DNA of 12,851 nt, taken from the UHGV virus genome UHGV-0102871; one strand, given 5' to 3'. How positions within the stretch are numbered: position 1 is the stretch's first letter; the number at the start of each line of letters is the position of its first letter. Shown one piece after another: positions 1 to 12,287 of this stretch. Below the pieces are notes generated by a model. It saw only the letters and a list, made by a program, of their open reading frames with translations, was not told the DNA's origin and made no database searches. Source of the stretch: a virus. Made by a program: the position numbers and the translations under genes.

Positions 1-131
1 CTTAACGAAAAGCAGGTGGCAGCATGAGATACGGATCTGTTTGCTGCGCAGCGCCGGTTCTTCTATGGGCATCGCCGCAGCTCCACTGCAAACAGATCCG
101 TATCTCATGCTGCCACCTGCTTTTCGTTAAG
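1..131. repeat. Perfect 44-bp inverted repeat (arms 1-44 and 88-131) around a 43-bp non-palindromic spacer; left arm touches the window edge
   Basis: Reverse complement of 1-44 is identical base-for-base to 88-131, checked manually. The right arm covers the 3' end and stop codon of the minus-strand 52-aa ORF. Confidence 0.85.
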
Positions 132-263
132 TTCTTCAGCCAGTCGTTGCGCCTTCAGTGGGTTGGTAACGACTTCACCCCACGGCAGCAACCATCCGTT
201 TTTCTCTTTGAGCCAGGGAAGGCGCACCGCGCCAACCCTGATGTCGTCGTGAGCGTGAGTCAT
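105..263 (-). CDS. Small hypothetical phage protein (52 aa), last gene seen in the leftward operon
   Basis: ATG at 263-261 overlaps the TGA stop of the upstream 142-aa gene (ATGA coupling). Manual translation gives MTHAHDDIRVGAVRLPWLKEKNGWLLPWGEVVTNPLKAQRLAEELNEKQVAA. Its 3' end lies inside the right arm of the inverted repeat. Below the ORF-track size cutoff; no homology recognised. Confidence 0.4.
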   Translation of the reverse strand: MTHAHDDIRVGAVRLPWLKEKNGWLLPWGEVVTNPLKAQRLAEELNEKQVAA

Positions 264-688
264 AGGATGGACTCCATTTCGTCGATGTAGAGGCCCTGAG
301 CAATCAGGCGGCTACGGCGGGCGGCACGGGCTATGCACTCCTGCCGTCTACCTTCCTGCGATTGCTCAATGGCGCGCCGGGTGAACAGGCGCGATTTGCC
401 CTGCGGCGTCACAACCTTCGGCTTCGTGACCAGGTCGAAAGTCCGGTCGCAGATGCCGTCCCCGTTGATCCACTTTTCCGACTCAACGATCTGCGCTATC
501 TGTCCGGAGCCGCGGGTAATACCGTTGGCTACCCGGTTAAACTCGATGAGCGTTACGCCAAACTTCTCAGCGATTTCGCTGCCGGTTACCGGGCGGCCGC
601 GCGTCTGAATCATCCAGATAACGCGCTCACGAAGGCCGGAGAATTGCCCGGTGCGCCCTGGCCTGCGGTAAAATGGTGTGCGTTTCAT
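260..688 (-). CDS. Hypothetical phage protein (142 aa), possible HTH DNA-binding protein
   Basis: ORF-track ORF. ATG at 688-686 overlaps the exo stop (ATGA). Basic protein with an HTH-like stretch (TGSEIAEKFGVTLIEFNRV). Function not recognised. Confidence 0.6.
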   Translation of the reverse strand: MKRTPFYRRPGRTGQFSGLRERVIWMIQTRGRPVTGSEIAEKFGVTLIEFNRVANGITRGSGQIAQIVESEKWINGDGICDRTFDLVTKPKVVTPQGKSRLFTRRAIEQSQEGRRQECIARAARRSRLIAQGLYIDEMESIL

Positions 689-1302
689 GCTGCACGCTCT
701 GTGATTTTCTGAATTTCCGATTCCAGATCTGCAAGGAAGCTCTTAACCTCAGATTCGATTTCGCGCGCCAGCTCTTCATCGAAATGAATCCGCTTCTTGA
801 AATAGGCGAGGTCAGGCGGCAGGCGATCATCGAAACTAACGAAATCACACCATTTCCGCCCGGTGCACATCATCTGTGCATGCATTTGCAGCATGTACTG
901 GCGCTTTGGCTCACCAGTTTTCAGCGTTTCAAGATGGGTCCAGGTGTTGGGGCATTTGATTTCGATAAGCCCGTCGTCGTTGACAAGTCCGTCCGGGCTG
1001 GCTGCGAATCCGGGTATGGTTGGGTGATCGATGAGCCCAACTTCAGTGATTGCCGCATTGAACTCATTCAGCGCGTACATTTCGCGTGCCACTGGCTCAA
1101 GTTCAGTGCCGCGCATCATCGCGGCATTCGAAAACCCTTCCTCCAGCTTCCCGGTCAGCCGTTGGCAAATCAGCTCGGCCATGTAGTTCTGGCGGCTGGT
1201 GGAGTAGCCCGACTTAGTCCGGGCCATGACATCAGCCAGGCGACTGGCTGTGACCTTGCCGCAGCGCGCAGCAAACCATTCAGGGGTGCGTTGCTCTATC
1301 AT
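685..1302 (-). CDS. exo: Lambda Exo / YqaJ-family 5'-3' exonuclease (205 aa)
   Basis: Translation carries YqaJ/lambda-Exo hallmarks (WFAARCGKVTASR; SPDGL...GLIEIKCP; YMLQMHAQMMC). Sits immediately downstream of bet with ATGA stop/start overlap, as in the lambda Red operon. Confidence 0.85.
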   Translation of the reverse strand: MIEQRTPEWFAARCGKVTASRLADVMARTKSGYSTSRQNYMAELICQRLTGKLEEGFSNAAMMRGTELEPVAREMYALNEFNAAITEVGLIDHPTIPGFAASPDGLVNDDGLIEIKCPNTWTHLETLKTGEPKRQYMLQMHAQMMCTGRKWCDFVSFDDRLPPDLAYFKKRIHFDEELAREIESEVKSFLADLESEIQKITERAA

Positions 1303-2045
1303 TCAGCCTCCGTCTCTGCGACATTGACAGGTTCGGCGTTGTCGACAGCAAGACTCATGTCATACATGCGTCGTTTCTCAACTGCGCCGATCACCTGTTT
1401 CTCTTCGGCGCTCAGCGCCACCCAGAACTCCTGATACTTAACGGTTCCAAGGCGCGCGGCGGACTCACCTTTTGCGATCAGTTCCGGGCGGCGGCTATCT
1501 GATTCATGGCCCGCATGAACCTCTGCCGTTGTTCCTTCAATTACTCGCTCTGCCTCGTCCTGGTCGAAGATGCCAGCGAAACCAAAGGCCAGACGCGCGC
1601 ACTGGATCAGCGTCTTGTGGCGAAGCATGCGGGTAGGGTGGGACTGCCATGGCTGAGTGTTGCGTTTGCACTCTCCCATGTACTCGGTGACGATGGTCGG
1701 GTGCTTACGGTCTTTGCGGTAAATCTTGCAGGTACACGCGCCTTCCTCCTTGTCGTAAGAGAACTCCATGCCGTCAAACTGAGGATGCTCGTTGATAATG
1801 CGAGCCCATCCATCAACGCCGACGACCGGGACAATCCCGCCTTTATCTGGGAATGCGTAAATCTCTTTGGTCCATGGGTTCAGGCCGTACTGGTTGGCGA
1901 CGATCAACAGGGCTGTAAACTGCTCGTCCGTGACGTTGCCACCTTTGAACGCTGTATTCTTCAGCGTATTCATCAGGTCTGTACCGGCATCCATGCCGAG
2001 GCGTGCGGCCAGTTTCCCGGCCATGGTGGAAAGTGCAGTACTCAT
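1299..2045 (-). CDS. bet: Bet (RecT/Red-beta family) single-strand annealing protein
   Basis: From the internal Met, MSTALSTMAGKLAARLGMD... LIVANQYGLNPWTKEIYAFPDK... PVVGVDGW... RMLRHKTLIQCARLAFGFAGI closely parallels lambda Bet as recalled. Start placed at ATG 2045-2043 with GAGGGA Shine-Dalgarno 7 nt upstream; the ORF-track ORF extends to 2060. Confidence 0.9.
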   Translation of the reverse strand: MSTALSTMAGKLAARLGMDAGTDLMNTLKNTAFKGGNVTDEQFTALLIVANQYGLNPWTKEIYAFPDKGGIVPVVGVDGWARIINEHPQFDGMEFSYDKEEGACTCKIYRKDRKHPTIVTEYMGECKRNTQPWQSHPTRMLRHKTLIQCARLAFGFAGIFDQDEAERVIEGTTAEVHAGHESDSRRPELIAKGESAARLGTVKYQEFWVALSAEEKQVIGAVEKRRMYDMSLAVDNAEPVNVAETEAE

Positions 2046-2063
2046 TGTTAAATCCCTCAAAAA

Positions 2064-2348
2064 TTAAAACGGGCAGCCGGTACGGTGTTCCCAGTCGTAT
2101 TCCGCCTGGGCGTAAGCAACTACCGAAATGAAATCGTTGTAGGCCTCGCCAGCTTTATCGCTGCGAAGCCCTTCGTATGGGCTGGAGTCTATCGGGATCG
2201 TGAAGTGGAAGAGGCCGGACGGCTCTTTAGGCATCATGTCGATGATTTTCTGCGCCCGGTCGTCGATCCACTTCTCTTTCTCGTCGGTGATCTGTTGCTC
2301 AGCCCAGCGCCGATCTTCGATGCGGTCGTAAGTGAGGTATGCGTTCAT
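2064..2348 (-). CDS. gam: Gam-like host-nuclease (RecBCD) inhibitor, short form (94 aa)
   Basis: N-terminus MNAYLTYDRIEDRRWAEQQ resembles the internal-start region of lambda Gam ([21 protein letters not shown], recalled). Position directly upstream of bet matches gam-bet-exo order. TGAGG Shine-Dalgarno upstream. Confidence 0.75.
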   Translation of the reverse strand: MNAYLTYDRIEDRRWAEQQITDEKEKWIDDRAQKIIDMMPKEPSGLFHFTIPIDSSPYEGLRSDKAGEAYNDFISVVAYAQAEYDWEHRTGCPF

Positions 2349-2355
2349 GGTTGCC

Positions 2356-3327
2356 TCAGTAATGAATTTTCGCGCAGGGGATCAGGTTATCTTTCAGAGC
2401 GGTAAGCACTTCGATAGCCTGCTCGCGGGTTAAGCTGGTTTGGCTGGTGAGCGCGTTAACGATGTTGGTGCCGACCGTCTTGCGGTGCTTAACGTCAGCT
2501 TCACGCTTTGCCTGCTCATCGGCGAGGCGCTTCTCTTCGGCCAGGCGGGCATCTTCGGCCTGTTTGGCCTTCAGGCGCTCGGCTTCAACCGCCGCGGCTT
2601 TTTCGCGTTCCGCCCGGGCTTCCGCTTCCTGCTTCTCGCGAGCTGCACGCTGTTCCGCTTCGACGCGCTGGCGCTCCGCCAGTTCAGCGCGGGCTTTCTC
2701 TTCGGCTTCACGGCGCGCTGCGGCTTCAATCTCCGCTTTGTGCTTCGCTTCGGCATCGCGGCGGGCTTGTTCTGCCGCTTCCTGTTTCAGCCGCTCATCA
2801 CGTTCACGCTGAGCCTGTTCCGCCAGACGGCGCTGCTCTTCGCGGTCACGGTCAAAATCCTTGTTCATCAGTAGAGCCATTTCGTGGTCCGCTTCGAACT
2901 TGGCAGCCAGCTCCTGATCGAACCTGATGTTCATCTCCAGCGCTTCGGCGTGCATCGCGTTCATGGCTTCTTCAGCCTTAATGCGTTCCTGCTCGGCTTC
3001 CCATTCGGTGAGTGGGCGGCGGGTCGCATCGCGCAGCTCGTCGCAGGCATCAACGAATCGCTTAATTTCGGCCTCAGCCGGACGCACAGCCTCTTTCAGG
3101 CGCTTCAGGTACTCACGGCCCGGCTTTTCGATTGCCGTCTTGCTGCGGGACACCTGCGCTGCCAGAGAGGCAACACGGTCACGGCCTTTCTTCGTGGACA
3201 GGTCCGGCACTTCGTTTACAGCCTGGCGGATTTGCTCAAGGTACGCGTCAAGGCCGCCCGCTACGTAAAGCACTGGGGCCTGTTCCGGCTTGATTTCGAT
3301 GACAGTTAAGTCCGTTACTTCGCTCAT
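2356..3327 (-). CDS. Hypothetical phage protein with long charged E/R/A/K-rich coiled-coil segment (323 aa)
   Basis: ORF-track ORF with AGGAGA Shine-Dalgarno before ATG 3327. Globular N-terminal ~110 aa, then ~160 aa of low-complexity heptad-like repeats (AEQAQRERDERLKQEAAEQARRDAEAKHKAEIEAAARREAEEKARAELAERQR...), then a ~50-aa C-terminus. The several plus-strand ORFs overlapping it are composition artefacts. Confidence 0.7.
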   Translation of the reverse strand: MSEVTDLTVIEIKPEQAPVLYVAGGLDAYLEQIRQAVNEVPDLSTKKGRDRVASLAAQVSRSKTAIEKPGREYLKRLKEAVRPAEAEIKRFVDACDELRDATRRPLTEWEAEQERIKAEEAMNAMHAEALEMNIRFDQELAAKFEADHEMALLMNKDFDRDREEQRRLAEQAQRERDERLKQEAAEQARRDAEAKHKAEIEAAARREAEEKARAELAERQRVEAEQRAAREKQEAEARAEREKAAAVEAERLKAKQAEDARLAEEKRLADEQAKREADVKHRKTVGTNIVNALTSQTSLTREQAIEVLTALKDNLIPCAKIHY

Positions 3328-3397
3328 GGTTTCTCCTGAAATTTGGATGTGCAGATCCCGCCCGCGTAATGCCAGGCCGATCGGTTGAATAGGGTGG

Positions 3398-3595
3398 TTA
3401 CTGCTGCGCGATGGATTTCGCCGGGAACTCGCCGTTGCGGATGATGCTTTCTACCGGCCAGCACTCAGCTGACACTTTCTGCTCTGTAGCTGCCAGGCTG
3501 CATTCCTGCTGGCTGTCGTAAACGCCGAGAATGACATCCTGATAATCACCGTTGGTCATTGCCACGGTCAGGACGAGTGCGAATAAAGTTTCCAT
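3398..3595 (-). CDS. Small hypothetical protein (65 aa) with hydrophobic N-terminus, in the kil-like position
   Basis: Internal ATG (3595-3593) of the 83-aa ORF-track ORF overlaps the stop of the upstream 42-aa ORF (TGATG coupling). Sequence METLFALVLTVAMTNGDYQ... has a hydrophobic N-terminus. The longer 3398-3649 form cannot be excluded. Confidence 0.45.
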   Translation of the reverse strand: METLFALVLTVAMTNGDYQDVILGVYDSQQECSLAATEQKVSAECWPVESIIRNGEFPAKSIAQQ

Positions 3596-3723
3596 CAGTG
3601 AAGAGTCCTCCCGATGGCGACGGCGTAAAGGCGTTTTGCTTCTTCCCACGCCGGAGCATTGCGATGGAGCACCGCGAACGACGCGAGCCGTTGGGCCTCT
3701 CTGATCTGCTGCTGGTTTACCAT
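3595..3723 (-). CDS. Small hypothetical protein (42 aa), in the cIII-like position
   Basis: Manual translation: MVNQQQIREAQRLASFAVLHRNAPAWEEAKRLYAVAIGRTLH. Strong Shine-Dalgarno (AAGAGGAA) 3-4 nt before the ATG; stop overlaps the next start. Not in the ORF track (below size cutoff). Function unknown. Confidence 0.4.
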   Translation of the reverse strand: MVNQQQIREAQRLASFAVLHRNAPAWEEAKRLYAVAIGRTLH

Positions 3724-3864
3724 GATTTCCTCTTGGCCTTATCGCGGCGAACGGAACGGTTAATACAAGACTTCAACGCATTTATTCAGTGTTTCAATGG
3801 GCGGTGGATGGCCGCCGGTTGTCATAAATGGGCAGACTCGAAAATCTGCCTATGTATGGCCGAT

Positions 3865-3884
3865 AAAAAACCCGCCGGAGCGGG
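3865..3884 (-). terminator. Candidate intrinsic terminator immediately after the 222-aa gene (minus-strand RNA CCCGCUCCGGCGGG + UUUUUU)
   Basis: Plus strand reads AAAAAA-CCCGCCGGAGCGGG-TCA, where TCA is the TGA stop of the 222-aa gene. On the minus strand this is a 5-bp GC stem with 4-nt loop followed by a U6 tract. Confidence 0.55.
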
Positions 3885-4553
3885 TCATTCATTCTTTGGT
3901 ATGCCGCAAAGGGCGTTTAGCGTTTCAACGGGAATGGCAAGTGCGGTGCTGGTCGCTTCACGGCGTTCCACCTCAGGCAAATATGGCACTGCCTCAGGCC
4001 ACATCTCAGCCAGTTTTTTAACAGTTGAGACTTTGGTTAGAGCACCTTTAACCTGCAATTGGAAGGCATCAACTTCATCGTAAAGAACGTTGATGGTTAC
4101 CGTCGATTCAGTGAGTCGGTCGTGTAATTTTCCAACTTTCTTCAGCGTGCTGTAACTTTCAGGAACGAAACCCGAATCAATTACAGGCGCGAAGGAAGCT
4201 CCGAAGAACAGGTCGCTTTCAAGATCGTGCTTACCAATATGTTTTCCACGGTGGCGATAGCGATGATCCAAACCGTTCCTGGCTAATTCGTGATACTCAC
4301 CATTAATAATGACCTTTAAAGTTGCAGTTTTAGCGCCGACCTGCATCTTGATGAAGGAGTTATCTTTGAAATCTTCCCGAGCCTTAGTTATTTGCTCATC
4401 GCTAGTGTTTTCCTGCTTGAGCAATGCCTGTCGAATTTCTTCAACAATTTTCGCCCTCTCATTAACCGCAGCTTTCGCTTTCTCAAACAATGGGGATGCG
4501 AGAAGCAGGTTATGGCATAGCTGATTTTTAATTTCGTTGTTAAGACGAATCAT
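3885..4553 (-). CDS. AT-rich orphan gene (222 aa), unknown function; first gene of the leftward operon, in the sieB/ral position
   Basis: ORF-track ORF with GAGGGT Shine-Dalgarno 7 nt before ATG 4553. Visibly lower GC than flanking genes (by eye, not computed). Soluble-looking, no recognised domain. Bracketed by a ~400-bp leader upstream and an intrinsic terminator downstream. Confidence 0.75.
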   Translation of the reverse strand: MIRLNNEIKNQLCHNLLLASPLFEKAKAAVNERAKIVEEIRQALLKQENTSDEQITKAREDFKDNSFIKMQVGAKTATLKVIINGEYHELARNGLDHRYRHRGKHIGKHDLESDLFFGASFAPVIDSGFVPESYSTLKKVGKLHDRLTESTVTINVLYDEVDAFQLQVKGALTKVSTVKKLAEMWPEAVPYLPEVERREATSTALAIPVETLNALCGIPKNE

Positions 4554-4969
4554 TGACTTACCCTCTGTCGTTACCCGCTGATGCGGGAGAAATGCTTTGG
4601 CGATGTGGTAGGTGGGAGACCCATTTCGACCCGATTCGGCCTACTTATCTTCGGCAATAGCTCCTCGGGCCTCGCCGCTTTACGTGCGACATATTCCCGT
4701 CCATGAACCCTTCACCACATCCCATAACATTCCCTGTATTGGTCAGCGCCAACTCCCTGCCAGTGTTGCCCGTTCTCACGCCGTTCTCGCTCTCGCGTGG
4801 GGATACTCTCTCACCGACCGGATCGCACCCGGTGATACAGCACGTTTACGTGTAGGGGTCTTAACAGGTCATTGACGCTGTAAATCTGCATGTTGTTAAA
4901 AAGCAGGCGACTTGCTGTCCGCCGCTGGCTAACTTCGCTCAGCTGTCGATGTTTCGTTTCGATGGGGTA

Positions 4970-5048
4970 AATTTAGCGTGATGCTAAATTATGCGCAATA
5001 GCAAAATGCTAAATTGTTGAATGGTTTTATTTAGCGTATTGATTAATA
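4970..5048 (-). promoter_or_regulatory. oL-like operator cluster and probable pL region: three sites with half-site ATTTAGC-N5-GCTAAAT
   Basis: 4970-4990 is a perfect 21-bp palindrome (AATTTAGCGTGATGCTAAATT). Two degenerate copies at ~4996-5015 (AATAGCAAAATGCTAAATT) and ~5028-5048 (ATTTAGCGTATTGATTAAT). Same half-site as the cI/cro intergenic operators. Exact -35/-10 not resolved. Confidence 0.55.
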
Positions 5049-5085
5049 AGCGATTAAAAATTTACAGCGAAGGAATTCGGGACGT

Positions 5086-5109
5086 AAAAAAGCCCGCGCG
5101 ATGGCGGGC
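5086..5109 (-). terminator. Intrinsic terminator downstream of the repressor gene (minus-strand GCCCGC-CAUCGC-GCGGGC + UUUUUU)
   Basis: Plus strand reads AAAAAA-GCCCGC-GCGATG-GCGGGC, 20 nt past the cI-like stop. On the minus strand this is a 6-bp GC stem followed by a U6 tract. Confidence 0.65.
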
Positions 5110-5129
5110 TTGAGGGGTTTTGCGTGAGG

Positions 5130-5807
5130 TTATGGGATGTTTAGTATTTTGGCATCAACCACAACGCCGATGATTTTGCAGTTTCCATTAATTTCTAGCA
5201 TTGGATATGCGGGGTTAAGGGGCTTTAGGAAGCGTCTGCCGGCATCGATTACAAGCTTCTTAAAGGTCGCTTCGTTATCGCCTTCTAGCTTCGCGACAAC
5301 CAGCTTTCCGTTGCGCGGCTCGACTTCAGGATCAACAAGTATCGCTGCTCCCTCGGGTATGCTCAGTCCAGCCGGGGAGGTCATAGAATCCCCTTTAACG
5401 TCCAGCCAGAATGAATCTTCTGAGCAGTCAACAGTCGTGTCATACCAGCGATCTATCGCTCTTCGGTGATAAGGTTCTACAGCTTCCATCCATTGCCCCG
5501 CGCTTACCCAGCTGATTACAGGATAACTTCCTTTTGTCTCGTTCAGTCCTCGAAATGCAACGTTCGAAGGTTCTTCACTGGCGTGTAAAACATCCATCCA
5601 GCCAAAAGGCAGATCAAGCGCAGTTTCAATTTTGCGAGCCATCTTATCGCCGATATTGCGATGAGGGTTTGGTCCCAGTAGCTGGCTAAGCGCAGCCGGA
5701 CTTGTCTCGATGAGCTCGGCAAACTGCGCTTTGGTCATTCCAGACTCGTGCTGACGCTTCTCGTACAGCGCTTCCAGGTTGGCTTTTCTGATTTCTTTAT
5801 TTTCCAT
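5130..5807 (-). CDS. cI: cI-like prophage repressor (HTH N-domain plus LexA/S24 peptidase C-domain), 225 aa
   Basis: C-terminal domain carries the S24 Ser/Lys dyad context (DVKGDSMTSPAG ... ATFKKLV) and LexA-like strands (GAAILVDPEVEPRNGKLVVAKL; KIIGVVVDAKI). N-terminus is HTH-like. Start set at the internal ATG 5807-5805 (MENKEIRK...) just left of the operators; the ORF-track ORF extends to 5924. Confidence 0.85.
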   Translation of the reverse strand: MENKEIRKANLEALYEKRQHESGMTKAQFAELIETSPAALSQLLGPNPHRNIGDKMARKIETALDLPFGWMDVLHASEEPSNVAFRGLNETKGSYPVISWVSAGQWMEAVEPYHRRAIDRWYDTTVDCSEDSFWLDVKGDSMTSPAGLSIPEGAAILVDPEVEPRNGKLVVAKLEGDNEATFKKLVIDAGRRFLKPLNPAYPMLEINGNCKIIGVVVDAKILNIP

Positions 5808-5824
5808 ACCTGCATTGTTACTGC

Positions 5825-5893
5825 TTTTAGCAAAATGATAAATGTGCAAATTGCTAAATGATGCTTGCGTAGTATTTAGCATAACGCTAAACT
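5825..5893. promoter_or_regulatory. oR-like operator cluster with divergent pR/pRM region between cI and cro
   Basis: Sites TTTTAGCAAAATGATAAAT (5825-5843) and ATTTAGCATAACGCTAAAC (5874-5892, 13/14 palindromic) share the oL half-site. Candidate pR: -35 TTGCGT (5865-5870), 17-bp spacer, -10 TAAACT (5888-5893); the stronger operator overlaps the spacer and -10. GGAGA Shine-Dalgarno precedes the cro-like ATG at 5924. Confidence 0.55.
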
Positions 5894-5923
5894 CCAAATC
5901 AAACGACTCACCCGGAGACACCA

Positions 5924-6157
5924 ATGAGCACTGAACTACACCGCTGGCGCAAGGCCGCCACTACCGACGAATGGGCGCAGCTCGCAAAGTTGGCTAACAC
6001 GACGCCAGGTTACCTGGACCAGATCGCCTACGGAAATCGCCGGGCATCTCCAGAAATGGCATCTGCTATCGAGAAAGGCACGAAGAATTTTCACCGCCAG
6101 GCTCCGGTCCTAAAAGAAAGCCTGGTATTCGCATCGCCGCGTGATACTGCGGCCTAA
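5924..6157 (+). CDS. Cro-like HTH regulator, YdaS-family (77 aa)
   Basis: Divergent from the repressor and first gene of the rightward operon. Motif GYLDQIAYGNRRASPEMASAIEKGT matches the YdaS-type Cro-like HTH pattern as recalled (YL.Q...G.R..SPEMA.AIEK.T). Confidence 0.7.
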   Translation: MSTELHRWRKAATTDEWAQLAKLANTTPGYLDQIAYGNRRASPEMASAIEKGTKNFHRQAPVLKESLVFASPRDTAA

Positions 6158-6174
6158 CCACGAAAGGGAAAGCA

Positions 6175-6717
6175 ATGCATTCACTTGCGTATCAACACAA
6201 TACCGGAATACACCCGGGAGCGATGATAAACCGCGCTCAAGCTAAAGCGACGCCGGACCACGAAAAGATCCGCGATGCGGTCCGTGCCTGGTCATCGGCG
6301 CTGGATAATCAGGACGTGGTGTCAGCGCTGATCATCAACGAATACCGGGAGCAGGGCGGGACCGCCATCAGCTTTCCGGACGACATCAGCCGGGCGCGCC
6401 AGAAGCTGTTCCGCTTCCTGGATAACCGCTTCGACTCTGAGCAGTACCGCGAGAACGTGCGCCAGCTGACGCCCGCAATCATGGCCGTTTTGCCGCTGGA
6501 GTATCGCCATCGACTTCTTCCAGAGGACAGTTTTATGTCCCGCTTAGCTCGACTTGAGAAAGAAACGAGCGAGGCGAAAGTGGCCGTTGCGATGAACGCC
6601 CCGCGTCACCAGAAGCTCAAGGAACTCAGTGAGGGGATTGTAGAGATGTTCCGTGTCGACCCGGATCTGACCGCGCCGCTGATGGCTATGGTCACTTCGA
6701 TGTTGGGGGTTATGTGA
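6175..6717 (+). CDS. YdaT-family protein (180 aa) in the cII-equivalent position
   Basis: AGGGAAAG Shine-Dalgarno upstream. Motifs IINEYREQGG... and TPAIMAVLPLEYRHRL resemble Rac prophage YdaT-family proteins as recalled. Follows the YdaS-like gene as in Rac. Confidence 0.6.
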   Translation: MHSLAYQHNTGIHPGAMINRAQAKATPDHEKIRDAVRAWSSALDNQDVVSALIINEYREQGGTAISFPDDISRARQKLFRFLDNRFDSEQYRENVRQLTPAIMAVLPLEYRHRLLPEDSFMSRLARLEKETSEAKVAVAMNAPRHQKLKELSEGIVEMFRVDPDLTAPLMAMVTSMLGVM

Positions 6718-6953
6718 TGGGAAGTTTCAAAAATGGCGAAAGCCAGTCTGCGCGAACAGAACTGGCCTTCAGATGCAAATCGTGTGCACTCATTGCAGGA
6801 GGAATAATGGCAAAAAATCCACGCTATTACCATACCTCTGTACATAAAAACATAACCCGCGACCGCTTCATCCGCTCGGTTAACCCGATTGTGGCAGAGA
6901 AGATGCGCGCCATCCTGGAAGAACTGAAACGTAAGGAGAGTGGCCGTGGGTAA
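6717..6953 (+). CDS. Small hypothetical protein (78 aa; possibly 48 aa from ATG 6807)
   Basis: ATG 6717 overlaps the YdaT-like stop (TGATG). An in-frame ATG at 6807 has a strong AGGAGG Shine-Dalgarno. The 3' end overlaps the start of the O-like gene. No recognised homology. Confidence 0.4.
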   Translation: MGSFKNGESQSARTELAFRCKSCALIAGGIMAKNPRYYHTSVHKNITRDRFIRSVNPIVAEKMRAILEELKRKESGRG

Positions 6954-7845
6954 CGTATCCAATTTAGCCGAAGCCAGAGAGGCCAGAAGGCTCCAGAAAC
7001 CGCGCACGAATGACGGTAAGGGGTTTGCCTTGCTGCACCGTAAAATTATGGATGTGCCGTTCTACAAGGACGCTGAGGCGGCTCATTTATGGGTTCACAT
7101 GCTCCTGCGTGCTAATCACGAACAGACACTGGTATCTACTGATGTTGGCGATGTGATCTGCGAGCGCGGAGAGTTCATCACCGGGCGAAACACACTGGCA
7201 ATGGAAACGGGTTTGACCGCTGATCGCGTTAAATCCCTTCTCCGTAAATTCCAGAATCTGGGCATGATCACCACCAAATCGAACAACCGTTTTACTGTTC
7301 TAAAAGTGGTCAAATATGACGAATATCAGTCAAATTTTTGTCCAGCAGATGTCCAGCCAGCGTCCAGCCCAAACATAGTCGTACCAATGCCTGCGGAGGT
7401 GGAGTGTCCAGCCGATGTCCAGCCAGTGTCCACAGATAACAATATATTAAATAACTTACTACCTAACGGTAGTAAGTATGTCGCAAATGACCAGAAACCC
7501 GCTGAAGAGAAAAAGTCTCGTTTGTCATGCGATGAAGTATGGCAATGCCTGAAAGACGAACTGCCTGAAGCACGGGGATGGAGATGCCTCACTGATGAGC
7601 GACGCAATCTGATCCGCACATTCTGGGGTAAGGCTAATAAGATTGCCCGCAACCTGGACGGCAAGCCGATGGATATGGACGGTTTCAGAAGCTATCTGCG
7701 TTACATCGCTCAGAACTGCCGCTGGATGCTTGAAGACCGACCAGACCAGAAGTCTGGGAAGACCTGGCGCCGCATGAAATTCGATAAGTTCCTGACCGAA
7801 AAGCTCTACATCGAAGTGCGCGAGGGGGATCGTGATGACCGCTGA
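6940..7845 (+). CDS. Replication initiator (lambda O-like, winged-helix N-domain) containing the candidate origin
   Basis: Directly upstream of and overlapping the DnaB-like helicase gene. Basic HTH-like N-terminus. Iterons and an AT-rich tract lie inside the coding sequence, as in lambda O. GTG start at 6940 or 6946 (AAGGAGA Shine-Dalgarno); exact start uncertain. Confidence 0.7.
   Translation: MAVGNVSNLAEAREARRLQKPRTNDGKGFALLHRKIMDVPFYKDAEAAHLWVHMLLRANHEQTLVSTDVGDVICERGEFITGRNTLAMETGLTADRVKSLLRKFQNLGMITTKSNNRFTVLKVVKYDEYQSNFCPADVQPASSPNIVVPMPAEVECPADVQPVSTDNNILNNLLPNGSKYVANDQKPAEEKKSRLSCDEVWQCLKDELPEARGWRCLTDERRNLIRTFWGKANKIARNLDGKPMDMDGFRSYLRYIAQNCRWMLEDRPDQKSGKTWRRMKFDKFLTEKLYIEVREGDRDDR
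7339..7435. repeat. Iteron array (GTCCAGC core; two ~31-bp units of three iterons at ~11-bp spacing) followed by an AT-rich tract 7437-7480: candidate replication origin
   Basis: GTCCAGC at 7340, 7351, 7362, 7406, 7417, plus degenerate GTCCACA at 7427. Unit 7339-7369 is near-identical to 7405-7435. Encodes the repeated peptide CPADVQPASSP / CPADVQPVSTD. Immediately followed by AATATATTAAATAACTTACTACCTAACGGTAGTAAGTAT. Confidence 0.6.
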
Positions 7846-9268
7846 TTTCATGGCTGTACCACAAAACCTCGAAGCAGAGCAGAGCGTTATCGGTGGCCTG
7901 CTGCTGGATGATGACAACAGCGAGCGAGTCCAGAAGGTTCTGGCGATGCTCAAGCCTGAATCGTTCTACAGCCGACCTCACCAGCTGATCTTTGCCGAGA
8001 TGCGCCAGATGTTCCGCGACAACAAGCCAGTCGATGGTCTGACATTGTTCGACGCGCTCGAAGGCAAAGGGCTCGCGGAGCAGGTAGGTGGCTTTGCTTA
8101 CCTGGCGGAGATCGCCAAGAACACTCCCAGCGCTGCAAACATCGTGGCATACGCTGCGTCAGTCCGGGAAGCCGCAATGGAGCGCTACGGTATCAGCCGC
8201 CTGACCGAAGCTACTGAGCTGCTGTATTCCCGCAATGGCATGAGCGCCACGCAGAAGTACGAGGCCATTCAGGGTATTTTCACCCAGCTCGCAGACCATT
8301 CAAAAACCGGTAGTCGCCGTGGGTTGCGGTCGTTCGGCGAGGTTATGGATGACTGGGTAGCAGATCTGGAGAAACGCTTTGCCCCTTCAGGCGAACAGCG
8401 CGGCATGAGCACCGGCATCCCGTCACTCGACCGGCTGCTGGCGCCGAAAGGTCTGGTTAAAGGCTCTCTGTTCGTGATTGGCGCAAGGCCAAAGATGGGC
8501 AAGACAACCCTGTACGGTCAGATGGCGATCAACTGCGCGGTTCGTGAGAAAAAGCCAGCGCTGATGTTCAGCCTCGAAATGCCGGGCGACCAGATCCTCG
8601 AAAAACTGGTTGGTCAGAAGTCTGGAGTTAACCCGAGCATTTTTTACATGCCAGCCACGGATGACGCCGATGACCAGTACCAGGGCGATTACGACGGCGA
8701 CTTTAAGAAGGCGATCGCCACCGCCGGGCGATTGAGTGAAATCGACATGCTGTACATCGACGATACTCCTGGCCTGTCACTGGCGCACATCGTTAGCGAA
8801 AGCCGCCGAATCAAGCGCGAGAAGGGCTGCGTAGGAATGATTTTGGTTGACTACCTGACTCTGATGACCGCCGAAAAAGCCGACCGTAATGACCTTGCCT
8901 ACGGGATGATCACCAAAGGGTTGAAGAACCTCGCTAAAGAGCTTGGCTGCGTCGTCGTGCTGCTGACCCAGCTCAACCGCGAACTGGAGAAGCGAGTGAA
9001 TAAACGCCCGTTACCGAGCGATTCCCGCGACACAGGACAGATTGAGCAGGACTGCGACTACTGGGTTGGTATCCACCGGGAAGGTGCTTTCGATGACAGC
9101 GTGCCGCCGGGAGAAACCGAGTTAATCCTGCGACTCAATCGCCACGGCAGTACCGGAACGGTTTATTGCAATCAGATCAACGGGGCAATTTACGACACAG
9201 ACCAGCAGGCCGCCGCCGCAGAACGCCGCGGGCGTGAGCAGCAGCCGAAAAAGAAAGGGGGATTCTGA
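7835..9268 (+). CDS. dnaB: Replicative DNA helicase, DnaB family (P22 gp12-like)
   Basis: DnaB N-terminal domain signature (LEAEQSVIGGLLLDD...) and Walker A motif GARPKMGKTTL. Length ~478 aa. Start overlaps the O-like gene's 3' end; start set at ATG 7835, with GTG 7832 also possible. Confidence 0.9.
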   Translation: MTADFMAVPQNLEAEQSVIGGLLLDDDNSERVQKVLAMLKPESFYSRPHQLIFAEMRQMFRDNKPVDGLTLFDALEGKGLAEQVGGFAYLAEIAKNTPSAANIVAYAASVREAAMERYGISRLTEATELLYSRNGMSATQKYEAIQGIFTQLADHSKTGSRRGLRSFGEVMDDWVADLEKRFAPSGEQRGMSTGIPSLDRLLAPKGLVKGSLFVIGARPKMGKTTLYGQMAINCAVREKKPALMFSLEMPGDQILEKLVGQKSGVNPSIFYMPATDDADDQYQGDYDGDFKKAIATAGRLSEIDMLYIDDTPGLSLAHIVSESRRIKREKGCVGMILVDYLTLMTAEKADRNDLAYGMITKGLKNLAKELGCVVVLLTQLNRELEKRVNKRPLPSDSRDTGQIEQDCDYWVGIHREGAFDDSVPPGETELILRLNRHGSTGTVYCNQINGAIYDTDQQAAAAERRGREQQPKKKGGF

Positions 9269-9612
9269 TGACCATAACAATCCGCGGGCAGATTCTTGCA
9301 GCCCTGCGTAACAACCCGGGCCTGAACAGTGCTCGTATTGCCAGCATGATCGGCATGACCACCAAAAAGATTTCCGGCCCGTTAAGTACGTTGTTTGCAG
9401 ACGGCCTGATCGAGTTCGAAGGCAAGCACGGACAGCGGCTTTATCGGCTGACCGATTACGGCATGAAATACGCACCAGAAACAATCCCGGCTATGCCGAA
9501 GGGAAATTCGAAGCTGGTGCAGCGTACAGAGGCAAACGTGATCTGCCAGGAGTGCCGCAACAGCGCGGCGATGAGAAGGGTATTGATGGTTTGGGGGAGG
9601 GTAGGGGTATGA
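9268..9612 (+). CDS. Hypothetical winged-helix DNA-binding protein (114 aa)
   Basis: ATG overlaps the helicase stop (TGATG). HTH-like segment SARIASMIGMTTKKISGPLSTL. Function unknown. Confidence 0.55.
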   Translation: MTITIRGQILAALRNNPGLNSARIASMIGMTTKKISGPLSTLFADGLIEFEGKHGQRLYRLTDYGMKYAPETIPAMPKGNSKLVQRTEANVICQECRNSAAMRRVLMVWGRVGV

Positions 9613-9806
9613 AAATCGAAGATATCAAAAACGTTGCGGTGTTCTTCAATATGAACGGCAAGACAGTAGCGTTACGAATGGATGCTGAGCAGAAGCGGAT
9701 CGTCGCATTAATGGCGCTTAACACGGCTGATGCTCGGGCAGAACTGATTGAAGTGCCGCACATGACTTTACCAGCAGACCCAGCCATGGAGGAGGCCGCC
9801 CAATGA
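9609..9806 (+). CDS. Small hypothetical protein (65 aa)
   Basis: Internal ATG 9609 overlaps the upstream stop (ATGA) and has a GGAGGG Shine-Dalgarno. The ORF-track ORF begins at 9552 but overlaps the upstream gene. Confidence 0.45.
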   Translation: MKIEDIKNVAVFFNMNGKTVALRMDAEQKRIVALMALNTADARAELIEVPHMTLPADPAMEEAAQ

Positions 9807-11115: not shown

Positions 11116-11442
11116 ATGAAGTCCAAGAAGCTAAATGCTGAGCAGCAATACAAATTAGACCTTGAATTGGTCAAGAAGAAGCCTGCGAACCGGACCGAGG
11201 CAAAAGCCCATTTGGCCGCACAGTTACGAATCAGCAAGTACAAGACGCAGACCTCTTCCAAAATCCGCGTAGGCAGTTTTAAGGGGCGGAAGAAGGTACA
11301 TTTCAGTAAGGCGGAACAAGCAGCCAGGGCAGCACTAAATAAAGCAAATGCCATTAGATTTTCCGAAGGGGAGGTCGAGTCCGTCGATACGGATAGAATC
11401 TCAGAAAGTAACAAACGCTGGCGCGGGAGAACTGCTGACTAA
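11116..11442 (+). CDS. Highly basic Lys/Arg-rich hypothetical protein (108 aa); first gene of the accessory cassette
   Basis: ATG 11116 with weak GAGAG Shine-Dalgarno; the ORF track starts at TTG 11098. Very basic composition ([10 protein letters not shown]...[13 protein letters not shown]...[12 protein letters not shown]...[10 protein letters not shown]). No recognised family. Confidence 0.5.
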
Positions 11443-11696
11443 TGTCTGACTGGAATATTGCTGCAAAGCCGCAGGAAGAACGCGACAAGGTCAACGTTGA
11501 CCTGGCAGCCTCCGGCGTAGCCTACAAAGAGCGCCTGAACATGCCGGTTATCGCTGAGGTGGTGATGCGTGAGCAGCCCGAGCATTTGCGTGATTACTTC
11601 CTTGAGCGTCTGAAGTTTTATCGCGAGAAGTCGATAGATTTACCAAGGGCATCCGATCCGCGGTACATGGAAATGGCTGATTCTAATAAAAAATAA
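11442..11696 (+). CDS. Hypothetical protein (84 aa), translationally coupled to the basic protein
   Basis: TAATG stop/start overlap with the upstream gene. No recognised family. Confidence 0.5.
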
Positions 11697-11747: not shown

Positions 11748-12287
11748 GTGATTAATATCATTGTTGATTCCAATGCTTGGAATTTTTTACATGTGAGTGG
11801 GATCTCCTTAAGCAACGAGCTTCTTAGCGATTATAACTTTCAGATAACATTAGAGGTGTCTCGTGAATTGCAGGAGTTAGTAGGCAAGGAAGGGAAGGAA
11901 GCTCTTTATGAATTCTTTGTAAGTGAGACTCAGTCGCTTGAAGAGCCCTTATGCTATTTTGGTTTTTACAATGAGTCAGTGCCTGCTGATGAACAGCGGT
12001 TTGGTGGATTTGGTGTTGGCGGGTTCGCATCTGTTCATCAAGATGATTATTTTCAGAAAACATTCCGCCAAATAAAATCATCAAAGCGTGGTATTTATTA
12101 TGGCAATGAAGCTGACATGCTGATCGGGTCAAGAGGAATTGGGAACACTTTCATACTAACAGAAGATAATAATAAGTCAGGCCCGATGAAAGAGGCTGAG
12201 AACACTATCTTTGTTTCAAGAAAATTTCCTATGACTGTGGAGCAGTTTAAGGAATATCTTGATCTTGAAACCTCAAAAACTCTTTAG
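11748..12287 (+). CDS. AT-rich PIN-like domain protein (179 aa), putative nuclease
   Basis: GTG start with AGGAGG Shine-Dalgarno ~10 nt upstream. Markedly AT-rich versus neighbours (by eye). N-terminal MINIIVDSNAWNFL, acidic E36/E40, D99/D100, and C-terminal NEADMLIGSRGIGNTFILTEDNN fit the four-acidic-residue PIN pattern (hDTN ... DalIAA ... lvTxD). Confidence 0.55.
   Translation: MINIIVDSNAWNFLHVSGISLSNELLSDYNFQITLEVSRELQELVGKEGKEALYEFFVSETQSLEEPLCYFGFYNESVPADEQRFGGFGVGGFASVHQDDYFQKTFRQIKSSKRGIYYGNEADMLIGSRGIGNTFILTEDNNKSGPMKEAENTIFVSRKFPMTVEQFKEYLDLETSKTL

Follow-up and report, generated by a model that had tools for sequence, protein, structure and literature searches.

Nmad5 is a widespread family of phage proteins that bears a functional name and has no demonstrated function in the literature found. 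The family is entered in Pfam as PF18757, 'nucleotide modification associated domain 5', and it owes its name to an analysis of gene neighbourhoods (Iyer et al., 2013, as cited by PMC11846954). In the M6-like Pseudomonas phage SN1, the gene lies beside aGPT-Pplase1, a kinase, a radical S-adenosylmethionine enzyme and a pyridoxal phosphate enzyme (PMC9476957). A sole experimental paper on Nmad5 was found, in which the protein is termed 'a DNA modification enzyme' (PMC11846954). Dhillonvirus mutants that escape Tmn, a KAP NTPase defence system, carried K296E (SM_S22) or K216E (SMA8) in nmad5, and sensitivity to Tmn came back when the mutation was reverted. Deletion of nmad5 gave a viable phage and no escape from Tmn, and the gene could not be cloned, for which the authors blame apparent toxicity (PMC11846954). 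Here, an Nmad5 gene is described from a stretch of 12,851 nucleotides of the UHGV virus genome UHGV-0102871, called the window throughout. The gene is a bona fide member of this known but functionally uncharacterised phage family, and it fills, to the exact boundaries of its open reading frame (ORF), the first-gene slot of a leftward early operon of the phi80/HK639 type.

An exchangeable first-gene slot behind pL

The sequences on both sides of the gene were compared with those of phi80 (L002) and HK639 (L133); compared loci are given L numbers. Upstream, window 4557-4970 is 99.5% identical to the pL-nutL leader of phi80 (L002 3453-3866), a match that ends no more than 4 nt from the N start codon, and the 42 nt before the Nmad5 ATG are 95% identical to the sequence preceding HK639 gene 44. 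Downstream, window 3885-3800 is 100% identical (86 nt, counted from the last base of the stop codon) to L133 3494-3579 after HK639 gene 44, so that both annotated HK639 terminators (L133 3495-3516 and 3562-3590) are matched on the 3' side. Homology to phi80 resumes downstream of the ORF, where window 3728-3827 is 99% identical. The Nmad5 ORF therefore replaces phi80 N exactly. The coordinates of the features are collected in Table 1.

The 5' junction of the slot is a short element that consists of a hairpin, a spacer and a Shine-Dalgarno (SD) sequence lying 8 nt 5' of the Nmad5 ATG. IMG/VR was probed with the exact 23-mer TTTCTCCCGCATCAGCGGGTAAC, which covers the CCCGC-ATCA-GCGGG hairpin and the start of the SD-bearing spacer. 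The 23-mer is present once in the window and in at least 120 IMG/VR contigs; these slot counts are lower bounds and are skewed to close relatives, since an exact 23-mer was needed. The element was also found in phi80, HK639, HK225, KO-TP1 and CobraSix, and 112 of 5426 E. coli genomes carry it. The ORFs that follow it fall into at least 46 unrelated clusters (111 complete ORFs among the matches listed), with phi80 N following in 4 and Nmad5 in 5 of the 120 matches listed. When ten larger representatives of these ORFs were searched with Pfam, DUF2528 alone was recognised, and phi80 N was among the unmatched.

The 3' side of the slot recurs in the same way. A CCCGC-N(3-5)-GCGGG hairpin with a T-run follows the stop codon in 58 of the 114 slot ORFs listed, 33 with the exact core of the window terminator and 25 with a similar one, and for 32 of the 33 exact cores no more than 0-5 nt separate the stop codon and the start of the core. 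The stem of the 5' hairpin is the same as the stem of this terminator. The earlier note on this DNA, made from the sequence without database searches, had described the gene as bracketed by a long leader and by its own terminator. Both features are present, but neither belongs to the gene: the leader is of the phi80 type, and the terminator at the stop codon matches that of the HK639 gene 44 region and is of a kind found after many unrelated ORFs. They are properties of a conserved exchangeable slot and not of the Nmad5 gene.

Table 1. Positions of the features around the Nmad5 gene (window numbering)
Feature	Position	Strand	Details
Nmad5-family protein gene	3885..4553	minus	ATG start; 222 aa; ~25 kDa; isoelectric point 7.1
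pL promoter	4970..4998	minus	-35 TTGCGC 4998-4993; 17-nt spacer; -10 TAAATT 4975-4970; placed by phi80/HK639 homology
OL operators, three palindromes	4971-4989, 4996-5014, 5029-5047		ATTTAGC-N5-GCTAAAT type
pL leader, phi80 type, ~410 nt	4554..4962	minus	boxA-like TGCTTTTTA 4905-4897; 'nutL core' hairpin CACGTAAACGTG 4852-4841
Slot-junction element	4554..4603	minus	hairpin CCCGC (4587-4583)-ATCA-GCGGG (4578-4574); TAACGACA; SD GAGGG (4565-4561); ATG
Intrinsic terminator, tL1-equivalent of the slot	3863..3886	minus	stem GACCCGC-TCCG-GCGGGTT 3886..3869 plus T-run; overlaps TGA 3887-3885
Further hairpin	3850-3831	minus	GGCAGA-N8-TCTGCC; conserved, read from sequence
Further hairpin	~3815-3799	minus	GGCGG-CCATCCA-CCGCC; the second HK639-annotated terminator; the two further hairpins together span 3789..3850

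The Nmad5 cassette (about window 3796-4600) was found behind at least five different leaders in several prophage backgrounds. A phi80-type nutL leader precedes it in the window, in L112, in PEC422 and in others, whereas in L072, which is 93% identical to HK639, it is preceded by an HK639-type putL and gene 45. In L018 a putL and a 51-aa ORF come before it, and two other leaders were seen in L070 and in the Enterobacter locus L132. Two cassettes may also stand in tandem: in L101 the element is followed by a 62-aa zinc-ribbon ORF, its TAA, the element once more and then Nmad5. This pair, an 'ECs_2282 family zinc-binding protein' and Nmad5, is found in E. coli L73 and 1218KP as well.

The promoter pL was placed from the annotated pL of phi80 (-10 at L002 3866-3871, by alignment offset) and from the 'putative pL' of HK639 (L133 2280-2308), and the positions of the nutL boxA and core were taken from the phi80 annotation. 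A generic promoter scan overlooked pL because only 8 of 12 consensus positions match. The operator palindrome was matched six times in the window, where chance would give 0.55; three of the matches are at OL and three at OR (5825-5892), and OL1 overlaps the -10 of pL. On the transcript from pL, Nmad5 is the first ORF; it begins about 410 nt beyond the start site, ahead of the first terminator. The placement of pL and of the operators confirms what had been read from the sequence, that this is the first, pL-proximal gene of the leftward operon; the transcript of cI ends at a strong terminator of its own (5111-5090).

The leader RNA folds moderately better than shuffled sequences (z = -2.46). 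An Rfam search of 3300-6300 at E<=1 gave sub-threshold chance matches only, with zero known RNA elements in the leader. A large part of the leader is shared more widely, as Stx-converting phages, with phi346 (L138 1501-1817) as an example, are about 95% identical to window 4590-4906; they have other genes downstream and a restriction-modification pair upstream.

The precise exchange of phi80 N behind a 99.5% identical leader could be taken to mean that Nmad5 is a functional stand-in for the N antiterminator at an intact nutL. Nowhere in the window was an N homologue found: the queries phi80 N, the N of L005 and HK225_041 gave a best E of 6 in tblastn, and a Pfam search of 28 ORFs matched zero N families. 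A diverged Nmad5 orthologue in L006 also comes directly after the leader. Such a substitution is nevertheless scarcely credible and was rejected. An 80%-identical orthologue in L005 lies three genes downstream of a genuine N gene of the N_peptide family, and the same cassette lies behind the HK639-type putL antiterminator RNA in L072 and L018, so Nmad5 coexists with N as well as with putL. The N-terminus of the protein, MIRLNNEIKNQLCHN, has no arginine-rich motif, and the slot is hypervariable, being shared by the many unrelated ORFs counted above. The 'N' of phi80 (L002 3153-3449) sits in the same exchangeable slot; it gave zero Pfam N-family matches, and an arginine-rich N-terminus was not seen in it. 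The window keeps the nutL leader of phi80 without a detectable N gene.

The window as a whole is a lambdoid prophage early region with the gene order int end, exo, bet, gamL, a Mog-like 323-aa gene, DUF1482, Nmad5, cI, cro, a YdaT/CII-like gene, O and DnaB. Its cI is of the LexA/S24 type. Because the cI coding sequence as annotated (5130-5882) is overlapped at its 5' end by the three OR matches, cI probably begins downstream of its annotated start. The plus-strand ORF at 11442-11696 encodes a DNA polymerase III theta subunit homologue (PF06440, E=1e-34).

The Nmad5 gene and its product

Earlier, the gene was described as an orphan without a recognised domain, a description that does not hold. 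The window protein matches PF18757 with 108.5 bits (cutoff 27; E=6.2e-31), from residue 2 to 219 on model positions 1-206 of 206, and this is its sole Pfam match. It also matches PHROG 1965 (unknown function) with E=1.8e-49, and the 99.9%-identical copy in E. coli PEC422 is labelled 'Nmad5 family putative nucleotide modification protein' in RefSeq. Zero families were matched in an NCBIfam scan. As a member of an already named family, the gene is not new as an orphan.

An exhaustive HMMER search over 1.8 billion representative proteins returned 132 relatives, nearly all of them single-domain proteins of about 180-250 aa. Distant relatives (<=33% identity) were found by tblastn in 188 phage genomes, chiefly of Dhillonvirus, Guernseyvirinae, Vibrio and Edwardsiella phages. 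Close copies of the gene are rare: it has 8 carriers among 5426 complete E. coli genomes, and a single-protein scan of the GTDB species representatives gave one locus with a close Nmad5, in Enterobacter genomosp. O (99% identity). In the IMG/VR contig L112, which is 99.86% identical to window 43-9618, a premature stop codon shortens Nmad5 to 165 aa. This shortened copy suggests that the gene is dispensable in the lysogen.

Comparison with orthologues of 80-84% amino-acid identity gave a proportion of nonsynonymous differences (pN) of 0.12-0.14 and of synonymous differences (pS) of 0.82-0.84, the synonymous sites being saturated. The ORF is therefore a selected protein-coding gene, and it is under strong purifying selection. 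Its GC content was also said to be visibly lower than that of its neighbours, which agrees with the values measured: 45.1% for the ORF against 52.7% for the window, at the 6.5th percentile among stretches of 669 nt. At third codon positions (GC3) the difference is larger: the ORF has 45.3%, the other leftward genes have 66.4% (chi-square p=5e-9) and the rightward genes 64.7% (p=8e-8). The low GC is a trait of the gene itself, as its orthologues have 41-48% GC within loci of 47-53%. It is not unique to Nmad5 in the window, as cI has 47.8% and the ORF at 11748-12287 has 38.9%. The latter, on the plus strand in a nin-like region, encodes 179 aa with a GC3 of 37% and matches PHROG 26388 (unknown function); neither a Pfam nor a PADLOC match was obtained for it, and it is a candidate for a second moron-like gene.

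The structure of the protein was predicted with AlphaFold2 from an alignment of 88 sequences, with a predicted local distance difference test (pLDDT) score of 89.5 and a predicted template modelling (pTM) score of 0.83; numbering in the model and the alignment omits Met1. The model has a long antiparallel helical hairpin (helices ~5-46 and ~142-171), a beta-hairpin/loop tip (~77-135) and a small C-terminal helical region that is followed by a tail of lower confidence. The conserved positions cluster in the N-terminal helix and in the signature T-V-K-K-L-x3-W-P-E ... L-N-x2-C-G-[IL]-P. Across the 88 homologues only W185, P186 and N213 are invariant, with T, L and P residues near-invariant, and a conserved constellation of acidic, His, Cys, Ser or Lys residues of the kind typical of enzymes is absent. 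The basic His/Arg cluster that the earlier note had pointed out, HRYRHRGKHIGKH, is present at residues 97-109 in the tip; it is restricted to the enterobacterial prophage clade and is thus no family-wide motif.

The best fold matches in BFVD were all Nmad5 or 'conserved phage' proteins, with template modelling (TM) scores of 0.56-0.68. Solved relatives were not found, the Foldseek search against the PDB giving E>=3.7 and the hidden Markov model search against PDB sequences E>=0.14, and no DNA-binding or enzyme fold was detectable in these structure and remote-homology searches. The structure prediction and homology search that had been recommended for this gene end in a confident helical-hairpin model with Nmad5 relatives only. 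From the model and the conservation pattern, the protein looks non-enzymatic.

Possible roles of the protein

The window gene is probably an exchangeable immediate-early accessory gene and not a new kind of system. The favoured reading, to which a probability of roughly 0.45 is given, is that it encodes a non-enzymatic immediate-early protein which would bind a conserved component of the host or of its immunity, for takeover or for counter-defence. Under the operator-controlled pL, the only recognisable promoter, Nmad5 would be silent in the lysogen. Upon infection or induction it would be transcribed immediately, and antitermination would not be needed. Immediate-early, lysogen-silent expression is suggested because pL is the sole recognisable promoter and the gene comes before the first terminator. 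The conserved 'head', made of the N-terminal helix and the C-terminal motif T-V-K-K-L-x3-W-P-E ... L-N-x2-C-G-I-P, may then bind the host or immune component, while the variable beta-hairpin tip might modulate specificity.

An early role is supported by the promoter-proximal or early position of Nmad5 in unrelated phages. In the Salmonella phage W5_chr3 it is the first gene of an early operon, divergent from a helix-turn-helix regulator, and in the Klebsiella phage VLCpiS11a it is the second gene, upstream of an exonuclease, a single-stranded-DNA-binding protein (SSB) and a polymerase. In the early phage region of L139 (3616-5657) the genes immediately before a 38%-identical Nmad5 are HD_4, YAcAr and NADAR, domains that are tied to NAD and ADP-ribose conflict systems, and in L141 it adjoins RdgC and Kil. 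The gene of Bas95 lies within an early region crowded with small ORFs. Across the relatives Nmad5 is a solitary accessory gene whose settings vary, and that of the Dhillonvirus SM_S22 stands on the opposite strand between head genes. A link to a phage-defence conflict comes from the Tmn work: K296 of SM_S22 aligns to K179 of the window protein, the first lysine of the signature TVKKL...WPE.

The idea of a defence or counter-defence gene had been put forward before, in the form of a gene that is expressed in lysogens or very early. Its general part, a conflict between phage and host defence, is plausible in light of the lysine of the Tmn escape, and the position is indeed typical of accessory, host-directed genes. 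Its lysogenic part, a defence or superinfection-exclusion gene that would be a moron of the sieB/rex kind, is disfavoured by the control through pL, the terminator of cI and the lack of a PADLOC match, and it appears quite improbable. It would account for the low GC of a foreign cassette and for a discrete unit that is closed by a terminator, and the DefensePredictor paper (PMC13092281) has an NMAD-type domain in its list of defence systems, without stating which NMAD family is meant. The terminator, however, belongs to the slot and not to the gene, and the gene is downstream of an operator-controlled pL. An own promoter was not found, as no sigma-70-like site was detected in 3300-5300 by a scan that is insensitive and that overlooked pL as well. 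The PADLOC scan of the window protein for known defence homology gave no match at E<=0.1. Most homologues, moreover, are in virulent phages (Dhillonvirus, Guernseyvirinae), where a lysogen defence would be meaningless.

The neighbourhoods of the family fit another role, that of an accessory of replication or recombination, in which Nmad5 would be a structural adaptor for the DNA machinery of the phage and would not act on host immunity. The machinery meant is Gam/Bet/Exo in the window, and the exonuclease, SSB-annealing protein and DNA polymerase in virulent siphoviruses. The window gene shares one operon with gamL-bet-exo, the genes of VLCpiS11a, W5_chr3 and eiAU are beside a helicase-primase, an exonuclease, a gp2.5-like SSB and a DNA polymerase, and the neighbour in L141 is RdgC. 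On the other hand, dozens of unrelated genes are found in this slot, so that proximity to the Red genes comes with the slot, and in Dhillonvirus the lone gene among head genes can be deleted with the phage remaining viable (PMC11846954). A DNA-binding or enzyme fold was not detectable either, and this role is considered somewhat unlikely.

The family name points to base modification. On this view the protein would have a non-catalytic part in a DNA base-modification pathway, for example the targeting or scaffolding of modifying enzymes on DNA. The origin of the name in gene neighbourhoods (Iyer et al., 2013, as cited in PMC11846954) and the adjacency to modification genes in SN1 (PMC9476957) speak for it. 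In the window, however, no hydroxymethylase, aGPT-Pplase, 5-hmdU kinase, glycosyltransferase or methylase was found near Nmad5. In the related loci inspected, no base-modification gene adjoins it, the methylases of L006 and L141 being at least ~3.7 kb away. Catalytic-type residues are not conserved in the family either. A role of this kind is judged unlikely. Nucleotide modification by Nmad5 itself is less likely than the binding of a host or immune component, and an enzymatic role is unsupported by the present analysis. The label 'nucleotide modification enzyme' in the recent literature is probably misleading, because the gene is a clean single-gene cassette without nearby modification enzymes and the lysine of the Tmn escape is conserved.

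Several points weigh against the binding of a host or immune component by an immediate-early protein. The timing of expression is read from the positions of the promoter, operators and terminators, and the insensitivity of the promoter scan, which overlooked pL, may leave room for an internal lysogenic promoter. In Dhillonvirus the gene is among head genes on the opposite strand, a position from which an early timing does not follow, and in Guernseyvirinae it adjoins replication and recombination genes, as would fit a structural adaptor. The family was named for a thymidine-hypermodification neighbourhood, and that adjacency is real in M6-like phages (PMC9476957). The rarity of the close form among complete E. 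coli genomes also counts against it, as does the 165-aa copy in a 99.9%-identical prophage, since selection may be weak in lysogens.

A broader idea is offered tentatively, as a possibility. The pL slot may be a hotspot for the exchange of cassettes with immediate-early counter-defence or takeover genes, and Nmad5 proteins may have no part in DNA modification and be non-enzymatic early effectors that engage, through the conserved C-terminal motif, a conserved host or immune component, for example the KAP-NTPase of Tmn. Such a hotspot would be bounded by the 5' hairpin/SD element and the look-alike 3' terminator hairpin, and its families are nearly all uncharacterised, the phi80 'N' included. 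The slot right after pL, with its dozens of unrelated and mostly unannotated small proteins, could be mined for immediate-early anti-defence or takeover genes, and its architecture is a more interesting by-product than the gene itself. The clean single-gene setting in a temperate phage also makes the window gene a tractable system for testing Nmad5.

Comparison with described systems

The closest described protein is CDS6 of SM_S22, the Dhillonvirus Nmad5. The two proteins are 27% identical over the full length (E=9e-16), both are encoded by stand-alone accessory genes, and they share the C-terminal signature, including the lysine whose change to glutamate escapes Tmn. The predicted fold is common to the window protein and the Nmad5 models of BFVD. 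The SM_S22 protein has an N-terminal extension of 80 aa that the window protein lacks, and its gene lies on the opposite strand among head genes, whereas the window gene occupies the pL slot of a temperate lambdoid phage. The basic His/Arg tip at 97-109 sets the enterobacterial prophage clade apart from SM_S22.

Among early genes of other phages, ral and sieB of lambda and the first-expressed Ocr of T7 resemble the window gene in being promoter-proximal, early and dispensable accessory genes. Their products are dissimilar to the window protein in sequence and fold, and no similarity of either kind was found to known anti-defence proteins such as Ocr, Ral and ArdA. The sieB gene also has a lysogenic promoter of its own, and none was found for the window gene.

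The slot itself has two close counterparts. With the N slot of phi80 (pL-nutL-N-tL1A) the window shares the leader, the nutL boxA and core, the ribosome-binding-site element and the presence of a terminator at the stop codon. The ORF is unrelated, a 222-aa Nmad5 in place of the 98-aa phi80 N, and the terminator hairpin is of the HK639 type and not tL1A. With the gene 44 slot of HK639 (pL-putL-gene45-gene44-terminators) it shares the 5' element (95%) and the 86-nt stretch of 3' terminators (100%), and L072 carries Nmad5 at precisely that place. HK639_44 is an unrelated protein of 149 aa, and HK639 has a putL RNA and the extra upstream gene 45 where the window has the nutL leader of phi80.

A more distant counterpart is known from T4-type phages, in which PeSL cassettes (early promoter plus stem-loop), reportedly described by Arbiol et al. 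in 2010, are said to flank diverse small early ORFs and seemingly to shuffle them. The likeness is in the short conserved regulatory hairpins around diverse small early ORFs. The lambdoid arrangement differs in usually having one slot per genome, occasionally with two tandem cassettes, and in having an element without a promoter, and the 5' hairpin of the lambdoid slot resembles the stem of its 3' terminator.

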